A program made the translations under genes and the position numbers. The notes below the pieces were generated by a model. The model saw nothing but the letters and a program-made list of their open reading frames with translations, was not told the DNA's origin and ran no database searches. From Bradymonadia bacterium (GTDB taxonomy: Bacteria > Myxococcota_A > Bradymonadia > UBA7976 > UBA1532): a stretch of 64,000 bases of DNA. This document shows positions 1 through 9,780 of the stretch, in pieces (the stretch's first letter is position 1; each line of letters starts with the position of its first letter). The stretch is taken from NCBI GenBank assembly GCA_046290225.1, contig JBKAGE010000079.1, positions 64,001 to 128,000 on the forward strand, written 5' to 3'.

Positions 1-3000
1 GCCAGCGCAGCCGAGGCGCTGGAGCGCAGGTTCGCACCTCAGCAGGCCCGCTGGCTGCGCCTGCGCGCCGAGACCGAGATCGACGAGGCTGGCCGCCACC
101 TGCTCGCCGTGGGTGACTTCGAGGCCCTCGCCGCCGACAACGGCAGCGCCTCGGTGCAGCTGACCTGGACCGTCCCCAGCGACAAGGGCCCCACGGGGCG
201 TCCTGCGCGCTACGAGGTGCGCTACGCCGCCTTCCCCCTCACGGCAGAGAACTTCGAGCAGGGGACCGAGGCCGGCGCCGGCGCGCCCAGCCAGCCCGGG
301 GGCCCCGAGGCCCTCGTGGTGAGCGGCTTGAACCCCGAGACCCGCTACCACTTCGCCGTGGTGAGCATCGACGACGCCGGCAACCGCAGCGCCCTGAGCA
401 ACAGCGCCGAGGCCGAGACCCCTGGGGTGGCCCCTGGCACCGTGCTCGATCTGCGAGGCACGGAGCTGGAGCAGGATCGCCTCGTGCTGACCTGGACCGC
501 CCCTGGCGCCGACGGCGACGCTGGCGGCTCCGCGGATCGCTACGACATCCGTATGAGCGCTGCGCCCATCACCGTGGACAACTTCGAGCAGGCGGCCATC
601 GTCGAGGGCGCCGGCGGCCCCGCTGTGCCCGGTGAGGTGGAGCGCCTGCCGGTGGCGGGCCTCGAGCCCGGTACGGACTACTACTTCGCCCTGCGGGCCT
701 ACGACGGCGACGAGGCCAGCGCCCTGTCGAACGTGGCTCAGGTGCGGACCCTGGAGCCCCCGGAGCAGGTGCCCCCGGCCACAGTGCAGGACCTCGCCGC
801 CACCACCGACGAGCGGGTTGCTGGCGCCGTTGCCGTGACCTGGACCGCCCCAGGCGACGACGGCAACCTCGGCCAGGCCACCCGCTACGACCTGCGGTGG
901 TCTGCGTCGCCCATCAACGACGGCAACTTCGCCTCCGCGACGTCCGTGCAGGGTCTCGATGCCCCTCAGGCTGCTGGGGCCCAGGAGTCCACCATCGTCA
1001 CTGGTCTGCCGGGAGAGAGCGCGGTGTGGTTCGCCCTCGTGACCTACGACGACGTGGGCAACATGAGCGGCCTGTCGAACATCGCCGAGGCGGCCACTCG
1101 GGCTGAGCCCCCGGCGCAGATCGTCGATCTCGCCGCCGAGGTCCGTGGGGCCGAAGGGGTGCTGACCTGGACCGCCCCTGGCGCTGATGGCGAAGAGGGT
1201 CGGGCCGCGGCCTACCAGCTCTACATCGAGACTGCCCAGTTCGACAGCGTCGAGGGTCTCACCCCTGTGGCCGACGCCCCGGCGCCCGCTGAGGCAGGCA
1301 GCGCCGAGCAATATGTCGCCGCGCTGAGCAACGACACCACCTACTACGCCGCCATCCGCGCCATCGACCCCCAGGGCAACCCCGGGCAGCTGTCGCCGGT
1401 GGTGGGCTTCCAGACTGACGATGGCGTGGCCCCTGGCCGCCCGGTGCAGCTCGTGGCCCGGACCGGCGACGCCGCCGGTACCCTGAGCGTCTCCTTCGGC
1501 GCCCCCGGTGACGACGGCTACGACGGCACCCCCGCCCAGTACGAGGTGCGCTGGTCCACCAGCGCCTTCGACGCCGCGGGCTTCGAGCAGGCCAACCTCT
1601 ATGTGGGTGACCTCGCCGTGGGCGTCGGTGGCAGCGAGCACACTCTTACCCTCTCGGGCCTGCCCGGTGAGCAACGCATCTACGTGGCGCTGCGGGCCAC
1701 CGACGACGCCGGCCTCGTGGGCGACATCTCTGATGTGGCCAGCGCCGAGACCCCCGATGTGGCCCCGAGCCAGATCGCCGACCTCACCGCAGAGTCGGTG
1801 GGCGACGGCGGCATCGCCCTGCGCTGGACCGCCCCCGGCGACGATGGCGCCGAGGGCACCGCCGTGGCCTACGAGGGCCGCATGGGCACCGAGCCCGTCA
1901 CCGAAGACAACTTCGACCAGATGCAGCCGATCCCCAACCTCGGCGCCCCCGCTCAGGGCGGCGCCGCGGAGTCCCTCGCTGTAGAGGGCCTCGCCGGCAA
2001 CACCACCTACCACTTCGCCCTGCGAGCCATCGACGAGCGGGGCAACCGCGGCGCGCTCTCCGCGAGCGCCTCGGCGAGCACCCCCGATCAGGCGGGCCCG
2101 GCCCCTGTGGCCGACCTGCAGGCGCAGACCGGCAACAACGCCGGTGAGGTGATCCTCACGTGGACCGCCGCCGGTGACGACGGCATGGAGGGCACGGCCT
2201 CCTCGGTGGAGATCCGCTACGCCGGAGACGCCTGGCCCGGGTTCGAGCAGGCTGCTGTGGCCCAGGCCGCGGTGACGCCCGTCGCCGGTGGCGAGCGCCA
2301 CGAGGTGACTGTGACTGGCTTGCCCAGCGAGTCCGACCTGACCTTCGCCCTGGTGACCGTCGACGAGGGCGGCAACCGCGCGGCGCCCTCGAACGTCGCC
2401 GCAGCTCAGACCCTCGGCGTGGCCCCTGGCGCACCGAGCGACCTCATCGTCGCCGCCGAGGGCGCCGCGGCCCTGCGCCTGCAGTTCACCGCCCCCGCTG
2501 ATGATGGCGACGACGCCGAGAGCGGCGCCGTGGCCGCCCTGGAGATCGCTTACAGCACCGAGCCCTTTGACGGCGCCGACTTCGACCAGCAGCAGCGCGT
2601 CGCCGGCCCCGCCCCCGAGGCCCCCGGCGCCACGCAGTCGGCGGTCATCGAGGGTCTGCAGAGCAACACCACCTACTATGTGGCGGTCCGCGCCGCCGAC
2701 GAGCGGGCGCAGATCGGCCCCTCCAGCGCTGTGGTGGAGACCCGCACCGGTGACGGTGAGGCCCCCGGCCGCGTGGCGAGCCTGCAGGCCGCGAGCCCTC
2801 AGGGCGGGGGTGAGCCCGTACAGGTGGTGGCCGTGAACGGCAGCGCCTCGCTCTCCGAGGCCTGGCCGGTGTCCCACGCCTTCGACGGCGAGCAGGACAC
2901 GGCGTGGGCGTCTCCCCCTGGCGGTGGCGAGGGCAGCTTCCTCGAGGCCAGCTTCGGTGCCCCCACTCGCATCGGCCGTGTGCGTCTGTACGTCGGGGAG

Positions 3001-4584
3001 TGGGTGGATCGGTTCCCTGCGGACATCGCCCTGAGCGCTGACGGTGAGATCATCGCCGAGGCTGGGGATCTCGCCCCTGACGCCCACAGCTGGGTGGAGC
3101 TCTCCTTCGAGCCCGTCGCCGCGGAGCAGATTCGCCTCGACATCCTCCGGGCCGGTGGCGACGACGACCTGGGCTACGCGGTCATCAACGAGATCTCCGT
3201 GATGCCCGCCGACGACGCCCCCGACACCATCTCCCTCACCTGGGTGGCCCCTGGCGACGACGACAACAGCGGTCAGGCCGCGCGCTACGACGTGCGCATG
3301 AGCACCGCCCCCATCACCCCGGAGACCTTCGCCGACGCCACCCCCGTGGACGGCGCCCCGGCCCCTGGCGTCGCCGGCACCCCCCAGCAGATGCAGGTGG
3401 AGGGCCTCGACGAGGAGACCACCTACTTCTTCGCCCTGAGGACCTACGACGAGTCCGACAACGCCAGCGCGCTGTCGAACGTCGCCGAGGCCACCACCAA
3501 CGGTGTGCCCCCGGCCCGGGTGGAGGATCTCGTCGCCGAGGCCGATGGCCCCTACGCCGCGGTGCTCACCTGGACCGCCGTGGGCGCCGATGGCCACGTG
3601 GGCACCGCCGCCCGCTACGACCTGCGCTACCGCCCCTACGATCTGTCCGACGCCACCTGGCACGAGGCCATCCCCGTCGAGGCCCCGGCCCCTGCAGCCT
3701 CTGGCGCACAGGAGACCTTCCGCGTAGATGGTTTGCTCCCCGGCACGCTCTACGCCTTCGCCCTGCGGGTGGAAGATGAGCGGGGCCACGTGTCGCTCAC
3801 CTCTGTGGTGGCCCGGACCCTCACTGGCGACGGCCCCGACGAGGTCGCCCCTGGCCAGATCACTCGCCTGACGGCCCGCGCCGCCGGCGGTGACGGGCTC
3901 CCTCTGGCCCTGGCCTCTGCCGAGGCCTCGGGCTCACAGTTCCCCGACTTCCCTCAGTCCGCCGCCATCGACGGCGATCCCGACACCGCCTGGGCCTCTC
4001 CGGCGAAGGGTGAGGGGGGCGAGGAGGTGCTCACGGTGCAGCTCGCCGAGGTCACCGCCGTCGACGAGGTGAACATCCTGCCCCACGACGACTTCCTCGA
4101 CCTGTTCCCTGAGGACATGCGCATCGAGACGTCTGTGGACGGCGAGGTTTGGGACACCTTGTTCCAGTACAACGGCCCCTCCGGCTCTGGCGGTGTGGTG
4201 TGGATGGGCGAGGCCACCCCGGTACAGCACGTGCGCATCACCGTGCAGCGTCGGTTCCGGGATCCGGCCTTCCTGGCGGTCATCGGCGAGGTGCGCCTCT
4301 TCGAGGCCGGTGTGGGCGGTACCGCGCTGGTGAGCTGGCAGGCCCCCGGTGACGACGACCAGATCGGCACCGCCACCCGCTACGAGATGGCCACCGTGCA
4401 GCCCGGCCAAGAGGCAGCCTGGTTCGAGCCCGAGCTGGCTCCGGCTCCCGCTGGCGCCCCCGAGGCGGTGTTGCTGAGCGGCCTGCCCGCCGGCGACATG
4501 GTCATCATGATCCGCGCCATCGACGAGGCCGGGAACGTTGGCCAGGCAGCGGAAGCCTCGGTGACCATCAACCCGGTGCAGTAA
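1..4584 (+). CDS. Large extracellular protein, 5'-partial: 11 FN3-like repeats plus F5/8 type C (discoidin)-like domains
   Basis: Frame is open from base 1 to TAA at 4584. The motif LTWTAPGDDG...YxxR...YxFAxxxxDxxGN recurs 11 times. Discoidin-like motifs AFDGEQDTAWAS and AIDGDPDTAWAS are present. Confidence 0.85.
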   Translation, partial: ASAAEALERRFAPQQARWLRLRAETEIDEAGRHLLAVGDFEALAADNGSASVQLTWTVPSDKGPTGRPARYEVRYAAFPLTAENFEQGTEAGAGAPSQPGGPEALVVSGLNPETRYHFAVVSIDDAGNRSALSNSAEAETPGVAPGTVLDLRGTELEQDRLVLTWTAPGADGDAGGSADRYDIRMSAAPITVDNFEQAAIVEGAGGPAVPGEVERLPVAGLEPGTDYYFALRAYDGDEASALSNVAQVRTLEPPEQVPPATVQDLAATTDERVAGAVAVTWTAPGDDGNLGQATRYDLRWSASPINDGNFASATSVQGLDAPQAAGAQESTIVTGLPGESAVWFALVTYDDVGNMSGLSNIAEAATRAEPPAQIVDLAAEVRGAEGVLTWTAPGADGEEGRAAAYQLYIETAQFDSVEGLTPVADAPAPAEAGSAEQYVAALSNDTTYYAAIRAIDPQGNPGQLSPVVGFQTDDGVAPGRPVQLVARTGDAAGTLSVSFGAPGDDGYDGTPAQYEVRWSTSAFDAAGFEQANLYVGDLAVGVGGSEHTLTLSGLPGEQRIYVALRATDDAGLVGDISDVASAETPDVAPSQIADLTAESVGDGGIALRWTAPGDDGAEGTAVAYEGRMGTEPVTEDNFDQMQPIPNLGAPAQGGAAESLAVEGLAGNTTYHFALRAIDERGNRGALSASASASTPDQAGPAPVADLQAQTGNNAGEVILTWTAAGDDGMEGTASSVEIRYAGDAWPGFEQAAVAQAAVTPVAGGERHEVTVTGLPSESDLTFALVTVDEGGNRAAPSNVAAAQTLGVAPGAPSDLIVAAEGAAALRLQFTAPADDGDDAESGAVAALEIAYSTEPFDGADFDQQQRVAGPAPEAPGATQSAVIEGLQSNTTYYVAVRAADERAQIGPSSAVVETRTGDGEAPGRVASLQAASPQGGGEPVQVVAVNGSASLSEAWPVSHAFDGEQDTAWASPPGGGEGSFLEASFGAPTRIGRVRLYVGEWVDRFPADIALSADGEIIAEAGDLAPDAHSWVELSFEPVAAEQIRLDILRAGGDDDLGYAVINEISVMPADDAPDTISLTWVAPGDDDNSGQAARYDVRMSTAPITPETFADATPVDGAPAPGVAGTPQQMQVEGLDEETTYFFALRTYDESDNASALSNVAEATTNGVPPARVEDLVAEADGPYAAVLTWTAVGADGHVGTAARYDLRYRPYDLSDATWHEAIPVEAPAPAASGAQETFRVDGLLPGTLYAFALRVEDERGHVSLTSVVARTLTGDGPDEVAPGQITRLTARAAGGDGLPLALASAEASGSQFPDFPQSAAIDGDPDTAWASPAKGEGGEEVLTVQLAEVTAVDEVNILPHDDFLDLFPEDMRIETSVDGEVWDTLFQYNGPSGSGGVVWMGEATPVQHVRITVQRRFRDPAFLAVIGEVRLFEAGVGGTALVSWQAPGDDDQIGTATRYEMATVQPGQEAAWFEPELAPAPAGAPEAVLLSGLPAGDMVIMIRAIDEAGNVGQAAEASVTINPVQ

Positions 4585-8098: not shown

Positions 8099-8173
8099 TG
8101 GAGCCGTGAGAGGGACTCGAACCCCCGCCTTCTCATTACGAAAGAGATATTCTCCCCGTTAAACCATCACGAC
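8099..8173 (-). tRNA. tRNA-Thr(CGU), atypical
   Basis: Cloverleaf GTCGTGA-TG-GTTT..GAAT-A-TCTCT TTCGTAA TGAGA-AGGC-GGGGG TTCGAGT CCCTC-TCACGGC-T-CCA. U31:U39 mismatch, U2:G71 pair, CCA encoded. Confidence 0.85.
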
Positions 8174-8186
8174 GGCACTGATGTTG

Positions 8187-8258
8187 AGCTGCGAGGGGGA
8201 GTCGAACCCGCGTCTCCTCCCTACCATGGAGGCGTTCTGGCCGTTGAACTACCGCAGC
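8187..8258 (-). tRNA. tRNA-Thr(GGU), atypical
   Basis: GCTGCGG..CCTCC ATGGTAG GGAGG-AGAC-GCGGG TTCGACT CCCCC-TCGCAGC-T. A32/G38 loop, C:C mismatch in the T-stem, no encoded CCA. Confidence 0.8.
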
Positions 8259-8293
8259 GCTCAGTATCTTGTTCTCAAAAGCAAAATGTGTAG

Positions 8294-8365
8294 AGCCGCG
8301 AGGGGGAATCGAACCCCCATCTCATCGTTGGCAACGATGCGTCCTAGCCGTTGAACGACCGCGGC
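8294..8365 (-). tRNA. tRNA-Gly(GCC), atypical acceptor stem
   Basis: GCCGCGG..CATCG TTGCCAA CGATG-AGAT-GGGGG TTCGATT CCCCC-TCGCGGC-T. U73, C3:G70, no encoded CCA. Confidence 0.85.
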
Positions 8366-8372
8366 GAATTGT

Positions 8373-8446
8373 TGGAGCCGTGAGAGGGAATCGAACCCCC
8401 ACCCCCTCAGTACAAAAGAGGGATTCTGCCATTGAACCATCACGGC
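8373..8446 (-). tRNA. tRNA-Thr(UGU), atypical
   Basis: GCCGTGA..CCTCT TTTGTAC TGAGG-GGGT-GGGGG TTCGATT CCCTC-TCACGGC-T-CCA. U31:U39 mismatch, C38. Confidence 0.85.
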
Positions 8447-8485
8447 GCTCAGGTACGCGTCATTTGGACATCAAACTCTGTGTAG

Positions 8486-8557
8486 AGCCGCTGGGGGGAA
8501 TCGAACCCCCATCTTCTCCTTGGAAGGGAGCCATTCTGGCCATTGAACTACAGCGGC
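8486..8557 (-). tRNA. tRNA-Gly(UCC), atypical acceptor stem
   Basis: GCCGCTG..GCTCC CTTCCAA GGAGA-AGAT-GGGGG TTCGATT CCCCC-CAGCGGC-T. G27:A43 mismatch, C3:G70, no encoded CCA. Confidence 0.85.
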
Positions 8558-8558
8558 A

Positions 8559-9055
8559 TCCGGCCCTGCGGCGGCGATAGCCGCCGTGAGGCCTCCCTGC
8601 GTTTCTCCCGTTGCGACCGTGAGGCTGATCGGGGGACGGATCGAAAGGGCGATCTCGCCGATCAGCCTTTGGCCGCATCGGATACAGGGGCCACGGTGAA
8701 GTGGCGGATGTCCAACGACAGGCAGACCTGTCGTACGATCATCGAAACATGGCATTCTCCTCGCCCCCTCGGGGCTGAGTTGCACGTGTTGTGGTGGAGC
8801 TGGCCGGAGTCGAACCGGCAACCTTCTGCGAGCCATGCAGGTGCTCTCCCAGTTAAGCTACAGCCCCACAAATATTTGGTGTTTCAGTCGTTCAGTCTTG
8901 GCCCGAAAGGGGTGCCCGACGCTGTGTCGAGGCGCCCCGATAACTTGTCCGTCTATGCCCGAGACAATCCCGCATCCCCCTCTCACCTGATCCCAGTCGA
9001 GATCGGAAATGGCGAAGGGAGTCCCCACGGCGGCTGGCGCCGCCGCAGGGGCGGA
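8559..9055. repeat. 43-bp imperfect inverted repeat (8559-8601 / 9013-9055) inside the tRNA array
   Basis: 8559-8601 matches the reverse complement of 9013-9055 at 37/43 positions by manual alignment. Each copy contains a GCGGCGGC-N4-GCCGCCGT hairpin. Confidence 0.8.
8792..8867 (-). tRNA. tRNA-Ala(GGC), atypical anticodon loop
   Basis: GGGGCTG..CCTGC ATGGCTC GCAGA-AGGTT-GCCGG TTCGACT CCGGC-CAGCTCC-A-CCA. G3:U70 Ala identity pair, pyrimidine (U) at position 37, C27:A43 mismatch. Confidence 0.85.
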
Positions 9056-9059
9056 CAAG

Positions 9060-9132
9060 TGGAGCTGGGCGGAATCGAACCGCCAACCTTCCCCGTGCGA
9101 GGGGGGTGCTCTCCCAATTGAGCTACAGCCCC
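9060..9132 (-). tRNA. tRNA-Ala(CGC)
   Basis: GGGGCTG..CCCCC CTCGCAC GGGGA-AGGTT-GGCGG TTCGATT CCGCC-CAGCTCC-A. G3:U70, C27:A43 mismatch, no encoded CCA. Confidence 0.88.
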
Positions 9133-9424
9133 AGAACAATCGAGTCCGGGTATTTCGTCAGAGCAGGGCACAGTGGTGCTGTGCCTGCTCAGGGTGGCTT
9201 GTGGATCGAAAGACAGGGGTCACTGTTCATGTGTGTTCTCCAGTTATAGATGTAAGTATTGCGTCTCAGGAGGGCGTCGATAGATAGACGCTCACCTGAC
9301 AAGAGTCATAACTTCTCGTCCGCGTGATCGATCACGGGCATGAGAAACCAGAGATCCAATGCTGCACCTTCCCCCAATACGGGGGTGGCCGAGCAAGGAG
9401 AGACCGACGTTCGTTTTCGGGTGG

Positions 9425-9465
9425 AAATGAAAACGCCCGCCTCTCCAAGCCAGGAGGGGCGGGCG
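9425..9465 (-). terminator. Intrinsic terminator (attenuator) upstream of the tRNA array
   Basis: Minus strand CGCCCGCCCCTCC-TGGCTT-GGAGAGGCGGGCG-TTTTCATTT: 13-bp stem with one mismatch followed by a U-rich tract. Confidence 0.85.
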
Positions 9466-9511
9466 CCGCGTAGAACCGTGTTGTTGAACGATTCTAGGGC
9501 GTTACCCCTCC
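9453..9511 (-). promoter_or_regulatory. Antiterminator hairpin overlapping the leader stop codon and the terminator 5' arm
   Basis: Minus strand GGAGGGG..CGCC..TAGAATCGT pairs with ACGGTTCTA..GGCG..CCCCTCC, sequestering the 5' arm of the terminator. Confidence 0.75.
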
Positions 9512-9673
9512 GATGAGACCGATACCTTTACCTGCTCTGAGCCATGAGGCTTGAGCGTTTCCGGCATCGCTGGGCCCTTCTACACACAGACCCGCCGTTG
9601 CCTCGAAGGCATCGGTACGACGTGTTGCGCTCAAGGCCGCGACGTCGATGATGTGGGTGGTGTAGAAAAACAC
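9494..9673 (-). CDS. Putative 59-aa leader peptide (uORF) of the tRNA array
   Basis: GGAG Shine-Dalgarno then GTG 9673, open to TAG 9494: MFFYTTHIIDVAALSATRRTDAFEATAGLCVEGPSDAGNAQASWLRAGKGIGLIGGVTP*. Shorter than any ORF in the supplied track. Confidence 0.65.
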   Translation of the reverse strand: MFFYTTHIIDVAALSATRRTDAFEATAGLCVEGPSDAGNAQASWLRAGKGIGLIGGVTP

Positions 9674-9751
9674 AGCAAGGGCTCCAGAGTTGTGACCCGC
9701 CTTGGGGTCATGGGTTCAATGTGTGAGTTGTGTATGTCAGAGACGTGTATG

Positions 9752-9780
9752 TTTCTATGGCTCAGTCATGTGTCGGTCAA
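9752..9780 (-). promoter_or_regulatory. Candidate sigma70-type promoter for the leader/tRNA array
   Basis: Minus strand TTGACC-17 nt-TAGAAA in an AT-richer region about 80 nt upstream of the leader start. Confidence 0.55.

Follow-up and report, generated by a model that had tools for sequence, protein, structure and literature searches.

Seven tRNA genes on the minus strand of the window (the whole stretch of 64,000 nucleotides that was analysed) lie behind a short open reading frame (ORF) rich in Ala, Gly and Thr codons and a pair of overlapping hairpins. As modelled from the sequence, these elements probably form a ribosome-coupled attenuator that would release the seven spare tRNAs only upon stalling at the cognate codons. 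The preliminary description did not note that this leader is one among six codon-matched units in the same genome.

Spare tRNA genes of the window

Both ARAGORN and Rfam returned seven tRNA genes on the minus strand between 9132 and 8099, in the order that had been described:

9059..9132, minus strand: tRNA-Ala(CGC), G3:U70 present
8792..8867, minus strand: tRNA-Ala(GGC), G3:U70 present, position 37 an unusual U
8485..8557, minus strand: tRNA-Gly(UCC), Thr-like scaffold (C3-G70)
8373..8446, minus strand: tRNA-Thr(UGU), ARAGORN/Rfam
8293..8365, minus strand: tRNA-Gly(GCC), Thr-like scaffold (C3-G70)
8186..8258, minus strand: tRNA-Thr(GGU), ARAGORN/Rfam
8099..8173, minus strand: tRNA-Thr(CGU), ARAGORN/Rfam

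All seven score 52-67 bits with Rfam, and CCA is encoded in three of them. The 'reserve' role given to them earlier agrees with the rest of the host genome (8.58 Mb, 99% complete), which has a housekeeping gene elsewhere for each of the seven anticodons, with 59-74% identity to the array copies. The spare Gly and Thr genes have a common scaffold (67-82% identical) and the two Ala genes share 84% identity, which makes the block look as if it had grown by duplication. Both spare Gly tRNAs carry C3-G70, while the housekeeping Gly tRNAs have G3-C70; by the usual identity rule, the spare ones may charge poorly. Downstream of the leader there are tRNA genes only, with neither a biosynthetic or synthetase protein gene nor a WhiB7 gene, and the locus is flanked by FGGY kinase and acyltransferase genes on the opposite strand.

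Other features were observed in the surroundings. A 13-codon ORF with a Shine-Dalgarno sequence is found at 9189-9230, between the terminator and the first tRNA. An inverted pair of a palindromic element occupies 8559-8601 and 9013-9055, with further copies on other contigs. A repeat protein of 1,491 residues, in which Ala, Gly, Thr and Asp seem abundant on visual inspection, is encoded at 109-4584, at a distance of 3.5 kb from the array. Regarding the assembly, rRNA primer sequences gave no match and no intact Ala(UGC) gene was called, hence the rRNA operons are probably unassembled. By its genome features, the host may be a predatory bacterium of the Myxococcota type.

The leader ORF and its codon content

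Upstream of the array, the following elements were identified:

9775..9780, minus strand: predicted sigma-70-type -35 hexamer TTGACC (from sequence; comparable pairs of hexamers stand ahead of each of the other five leaders)
9752..9757, minus strand: predicted -10 hexamer TAGAAA, 17 nt past the -35 (from sequence)
9682..9685, minus strand: Shine-Dalgarno-like GGAG (from sequence; unchanged in four runs of relatives)
9494..9673, minus strand: leader ORF of 59 codons, GTG start, TAG stop, with 10 Ala, 8 Gly and 6 Thr

The hexamers and spacing of the promoter proposed earlier are present, but a consensus promoter scanner called 0 promoters at the window leader. This scanner called no internal promoter between the terminator and the tRNAs either, and it is the same one that misses the leader's promoter. 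The 59-codon ORF was found as described, GTG-started and preceded by GGAG at 9685-9682, and it gave no Pfam match.

Ala, Gly and Thr make up 24 of the 58 residues of the window leader, which places this triple at the top among all 1,140 amino-acid triples. The enrichment has a p of 0.001 against base shuffles and of 0.009 against the proteome, the latter being the weakest among the five multi-residue leaders. The window leader contains all 20 amino acids (about 5% by chance), with Ala as the commonest, and the other five leaders of the genome hold 13-15 each. As an additional signal, codon diversity was not significant in five of the six leaders (p 0.12 in the window leader). The leader had first been read as a general stall sensor, a view that is incomplete rather than wrong: general stalling would open the switch, but the codon match to the gated tRNAs had been overlooked.

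Overlapping hairpins and switch energetics

Folding of the end of the leader and the region behind it gave three hairpins:

9453..9511, minus strand: predicted antiterminator, -32.6 kcal/mol, 5' arm formed by codons 55-59 and the stop
9471..9496, minus strand: inner hairpin across the stop codon, -8.4 kcal/mol, common to both folds
9424..9466, minus strand: predicted intrinsic terminator including the U tract, -27.7 kcal/mol

The antiterminator, beginning in the last five codons, was recovered at the same coordinates as before. The terminator, described as mutually exclusive with it, has its stem at 9466-9433, followed by a short interrupted U tract. Both structures use the segment 9466-9453, which is the 5' half of the terminator, and position 9457, the only mismatch within the terminator stem, has a pairing partner in the antiterminator. 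The stretch 9410-9530 folds better than 200 out of 200 shuffles (z -3.5).

In the window leader, freeing the 5' arm of the terminator costs 18.9 kcal/mol, a value attained by 1/100 base shuffles and by 4/100 synonymous recodings of the last 20 codons. With a modelled ribosome whose footprint was taken to extend 9 nt beyond the A site, the cost stayed at 18-20 kcal/mol while the ribosome stood at codons 38-51, was 12 kcal/mol with it at codon 52, and did not exceed 7 kcal/mol once it had reached codon 53; 20 of the 24 cognate codons lie upstream of codon 52. A clear drop near the leader end was seen in 18 of 20 leaders, all but those of the C/M/P unit and of G084; the C/M/P leader also has no U tract and no clean switch. 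Antiterminator strength passed the shuffle null (5/100 or fewer) in 13 of the 20 leaders and the recoding null in 10.

When complete leaders were folded at equilibrium, the terminator was preferred at almost every ribosome position as well as without a ribosome (P about 0.9-1.0), and no switch was visible by ribosome position in the 8 of 20 leaders covered. In the window leader, the terminator plus the stop hairpin reaches -37.8 kcal/mol versus -32.6 for the antiterminator. Since equilibrium favours the terminator, read-through would need kinetic trapping, in which the antiterminator, complete first, must persist. The geometry of the attenuator that had been proposed is supported in silico, but folding with a ribosome constraint favours termination nearly everywhere at equilibrium.

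Six codon-matched units in one genome

A second set of tRNAs, grouped by amino acid, is present in the genome and comprises 39 spare tRNAs for 18 amino acids in six dispersed and intact units whose amino-acid sets do not overlap. Each unit is preceded by a promoter-like hexamer pair, a short ORF and a hairpin. Cognate residues in each leader, with the base-shuffle p, were as follows:

A/G/T unit (window, minus strand): 7 genes, cognate 24/58, p 0.001
V/R/K/I unit: 9 genes on contig C20 and 2 on contig C24, presumed to be joined over the contig break, cognate 20/34, p <0.0001
L/S/Y unit: 10 genes, one ARAGORN Thr call being a Tyr-like gene and counted as Tyr, cognate 20/34, p <0.0001
D/E/F/Q unit: 7 genes, cognate 17/31, p <0.0001
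C/M/P unit: 3 genes, with a nucleoside hydrolase gene inside the operon, cognate 14/36, p <0.0001
W unit: 1 gene, cognate 2/25 (a Trp-Trp pair), p 0.12

Among the 720 possible pairings of six leaders with six operons, the true assignment is the best. If wobble is allowed for, 90 of the 97 cognate codons can be read by the arrays; among the 7 left unread are the three GCA codons of the window leader, which have no matching tRNA in its array. The output 'Ala/Gly/Thr only' given in the preliminary description is correct for the window operon but not for the genome, in which this operon is one part of a genome-wide second set.

Some spare genes and leaders present particular features. The C/M/P leader (L025:2120-3800, contig C42) has 5 His codons, though there is no His tRNA downstream. 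Spare Asn and His genes, and further Pro genes, lie behind a sigma-54-like motif (40 occurrences in the genome) and have no leader. The Asn and His pair is found at L027:1612-2000 (contig C44), and the same design appears in G081, G083, G084 and G085. A tRNA-Arg with the rare anticodon GCG is located at L021:480-555 and also occurs in L086 and L087. The Tyr-like gene called Thr(UGU) by ARAGORN is at L023:2333-2418. Finally, at L030:1498-2314 (contig C14), a tRNA with the amber-reading anticodon CUA follows two small ORFs without Pfam match.

A genome scan blind to tRNAs

Scanning the genome blind to tRNAs, we obtained 581 terminator-like sites; a promoter-like pair accompanied 12 ORF-terminator pairs, which fall at 8 places. 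Six of these places showed a switch: five lie before spare tRNA operons and one before a second EF-Tu gene, with none before housekeeping tRNAs. The known loci were in sight when the scan filters were chosen, and the specificity comes from the promoter filter; the switch energy test alone, without it, passes 42 places among the 581 sites. The EF-Tu leader (L149:6300-6750, contig C57, minus strand) is rich in Leu and Ser and has the same switch, and the second EF-Tu shares 55% identity with the main copy.

Matched leaders in other genomes

A DNA search with the locus in 41 relatives gave single matches of tRNA-Ala length only, and no leader homologue. None of the seven closest acyltransferase loci in the family has a nearby tRNA, and the Thr/Gly pattern of the window occurs in 1 of 113 class genomes, being one narrow pattern searched in genomes of which many are incomplete. 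Conserved synteny, proposed earlier as a check, was absent in the assembled relatives searched, but matched leaders were found at other loci of other genomes.

For this wider comparison we used 53 regions, taken from a tandem-tRNA pattern in the 113 class genomes and from the tRNA lists of three genomes, with 46 tRNA matches left out. A leader and a terminator precede spare clusters in G052 (3), G059 (3), G081 (3) and G084 (1). Leaders matched to their tRNAs were seen again in three genomes belonging to two other families, and also in one Bryobacterales array, where three promoter-leader-terminator units each stand ahead of their matching block. At L110 (G081:C658), two attenuator-like leaders in tandem, with 40/53 and 52/70 cognate residues, precede nine tRNAs (an Asn/Cys/Gly/Phe/Ala/Thr cluster). 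The sigma-54-like motif was found across L095-L148 at nine clusters or genes, one of them also with a leader, and cluster L112 has neither. Housekeeping clusters presented no matched leader.

We then scored the best ORF ending 25-110 nt upstream of each terminator against 16 tRNA sets, treating true and wrong sets alike, for 19 units from 6 genomes. The own set came first in 13 units, second in 2, third in 2, and seventh and ninth in the two misses. The summed own-set score was 70.8, compared to a permutation maximum of 50.2 (0/200,000), for units that were picked after their terminator and ORF had been seen and that lack independence within one genome. Without the host genome, the sum over the remaining 13 units was 45.2, compared to a permutation maximum of 41.1 (also 0/200,000). 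Leaderless clusters were left out, as were three whole arrays covering all amino acids (G235, G236 and G260), whose leaders hold all 20.

Regarding single arrays, L086, L087 and L088 contain 37, 37 and 27 called tRNAs, each with one leader and a terminator; the leaders have 100, 108 and 61 residues and all 20 amino acids. In leaders of 100 and 108 residues the full set is expected by chance (35-42%) and was rejected as a signal. The Bryobacterales array (L034:2419-6400) has 26 called tRNAs with an HNH gene inside and a downstream ORF that is TROVE-like by eye. The Thr pattern gave 22 loci over genome contigs, 21 of them unrelated single or housekeeping-like genes and one a useful array. With the Gly pattern we obtained 51 metagenome loci, all discarded as unrelated lower-GC contigs without matched leaders, and 0 loci in viral sequences. 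The phage and plasmid collections held no similar block, giving tRNA-Ala matches only, with a best cover of 9%.

Natural variation and RNA contigs

Four runs containing close relatives were compared at the locus, with 5-8% of the sampled words in each. In these relatives the leader ORF shows 9 substitutions, without stops or indels, and the frame, the start and both stems are kept. Two of the changes add Ala or Gly and one removes Gly; 4 of the 9 are synonymous, with about 3 expected, so no coding signal was detected in these substitutions. One relative DNA contig has an unchanged terminator energy and an antiterminator of -32.4 kcal/mol. In this contig, in which the antiterminator is nearly unchanged, a change at 9476 in the inner hairpin turns G-U into A-U.

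RNA contigs from two studies cover 9508/9511-9727 only, whereas DNA contigs continue beyond. On the tRNA array there were no RNA contigs except short pieces of other tRNAs, an absence of cover that proves nothing. The leader-only RNA contigs, which give neither ends nor levels, are a weak hint that fits a transcribed and terminated leader.

Comparison with known systems

Leader-peptide attenuators of amino-acid operons include trpL, hisL, the multivalent thrL and ilvGMEDA, and pheM-pheST. Like the trp/his/thr type, the window operon combines a short ORF rich in regulatory codons, a mutually exclusive antiterminator and terminator, and codons matched to the output. Its output, however, consists of tRNA genes and not of enzymes, and the cognate codons are dispersed over 59 residues. 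In the trp/his/thr type, a protector or pause hairpin brings about termination when the leader is not translated; in the window leader, the terminator is preferred at equilibrium with or without a ribosome. Rfam leader families gave no match at the window leader.

In the whiB7 attenuator of mycobacteria, the kind of shortage that opens the switch depends on the composition of a long uORF, dispersed codons can sense each amino acid contained, and knock-downs of tRNAs and synthetases activate through stalling and antitermination (available passages of PMC10274678). The whiB7/wblC uORF described there is, like the window leader, long, biased to Ala and provided with nearly all amino acids. In those passages it gates one transcription factor, whereas here six leaders of different composition would gate six tRNA sets.

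Supernumerary same-strand tRNAs and redundant anticodons are common to the window operon, the Anabaena trn operon and L-arrays; a patchy occurrence may be a further similarity, and a role in translational stress has been proposed for the latter two (available parts of PMC8421152 and PMC10272220). As described there, trn forms a single unit of 26 genes repressed by TrcR, whereas the operons here have 1-11 genes and are sorted by amino acid. An L-array is one long, rarely periodic array; the window operon has 7 duplicated-looking genes, and 39 are reached only on summing the six units. The terms 'attenuat' and 'leader' are absent from the main texts of both papers, the first of which describes bacterial regulation of individual tRNA genes as largely unknown (PMC8421152). 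Phage tRNAs have been proposed as nuclease-insensitive replacements and, like those of the window, are divergent spare tRNAs proposed to offset tRNA-targeting attack; the available text does not mention leader regulation (PMC10264068), whereas an attenuator is predicted for the window. By word search, the accessible text of a T-box survey (PMC2494555) has no passage on tRNA genes as targets, and we found no description of leader-peptide control of tRNA genes in the open-access literature, supplements excluded. According to these comparisons, the window system works like a multivalent attenuator but differs in output, and it resembles an L-array in role, not in form.

Proposed switch and alternative explanations

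The leader would be transcribed and translated constantly. A ribosome at about codon 53 would cover the G-rich arm, so that the terminator forms and transcription ends near 9430. If the ribosome were held before codon 52, the arm would stay free and trap the 5' half of the terminator before the 3' half is made. Normal reading speed at Ala, Gly and Thr codons would lead to termination, and a loss of that speed to production of the spare tRNAs. Leader translation, kinetic folding and read-through are the steps that we infer.

The best reading is likely a codon-sensing attenuation of the trp/whiB7 type with replacement tRNA as its output, serving as a guard against tRNA loss. A ribosome could not distinguish a lack of amino acid from a lack of tRNA. 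Because extra tRNA does not cure a lack of amino acid and the output is divergent tRNA, we lean slightly, within the attenuator model, towards divergent copies standing in for a tRNA family that has been lost through cleavage or modification. As the window leader is alone of the six in holding all 20 amino acids, it may also answer general slowing.

One could argue that the leader is simply a sensor of slow translation, of the whiB7/antibiotic type, with its codon bias of little effect and the operon induced by translational stress of any kind. The arm would be freed wherever a ribosome stalled before codon 52, and the complete amino-acid repertoire of the window leader, shared by the whole-array leaders of G235, G236 and G260, points in the same direction, as do the Leu/Ser-rich leader of the same build at the second EF-Tu and the response of the Anabaena trn operon to general stress (available parts of PMC8421152). 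However, six different leaders each matching their own operon would be left unexplained, and the other five hold 13-15 amino acids only; we consider this explanation unlikely.

Codon-sensing attenuation has also to be weighed against the idea that phage-like tRNA blocks, once acquired horizontally, have been silenced and persist as relics, with a terminator that fires every time and leaders that are inherited leftovers. The patchy occurrence (1/113 class genomes, 0/7 acyltransferase loci), the atypical tRNA bases, the termination favoured at equilibrium and the lack of RNA contigs past the terminator are consistent with such decay. Yet the seven tRNAs keep scores of 52-67 bits, relatives conserve the frame, start and both stems, six dispersed intact units divide 18 amino acids without overlap, and the best cover in phage and plasmid collections is 9%, which together make a relic quite improbable. 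A leader RNA that binds tRNA directly, T-box-like and untranslated, would have tRNA both as the sensed species and as the output. Nevertheless, no T-box or other cis-regulatory Rfam family matched at gathering score, nor any over the leader at E up to 10, and the match spans many in-frame codons behind a Shine-Dalgarno sequence and ends at a stop on the switch, so we regard direct binding as highly improbable.

A possible backup tRNA set and RNA repair genes

We see an even chance that the attenuators serve a complete backup tRNA set partitioned by amino acid, each block with its own codon-written attenuator, as family-specific feedback and toxin defence beside sigma-54/RtcR repair. In such feedback, the loss of one tRNA family would cause stalling on one leader and turn on only the divergent replacements of that family. 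The sequence itself reveals the sensor and allows a prediction of the block that each shortage would turn on. Six natural leaders in one genome are a ready leader-swap set and would be selective reporters of tRNAs depleted by toxins or stress. The genome has 3 RtcB matches, 1 RtcR match and two TROVE genes, which fit a setting of tRNA loss and do not prove it.

We also observed RNAs of tRNA shape, 107-142 nt long and carrying an insertion at the anticodon arm, at L028:1070-2160 (and L150) and L029:1414-1865 (and L151), behind sigma-54-like motifs and before TROVE-domain genes. These places gave no YrlA match and, judging by their motif, the RNAs are presumably Y-RNA-like.
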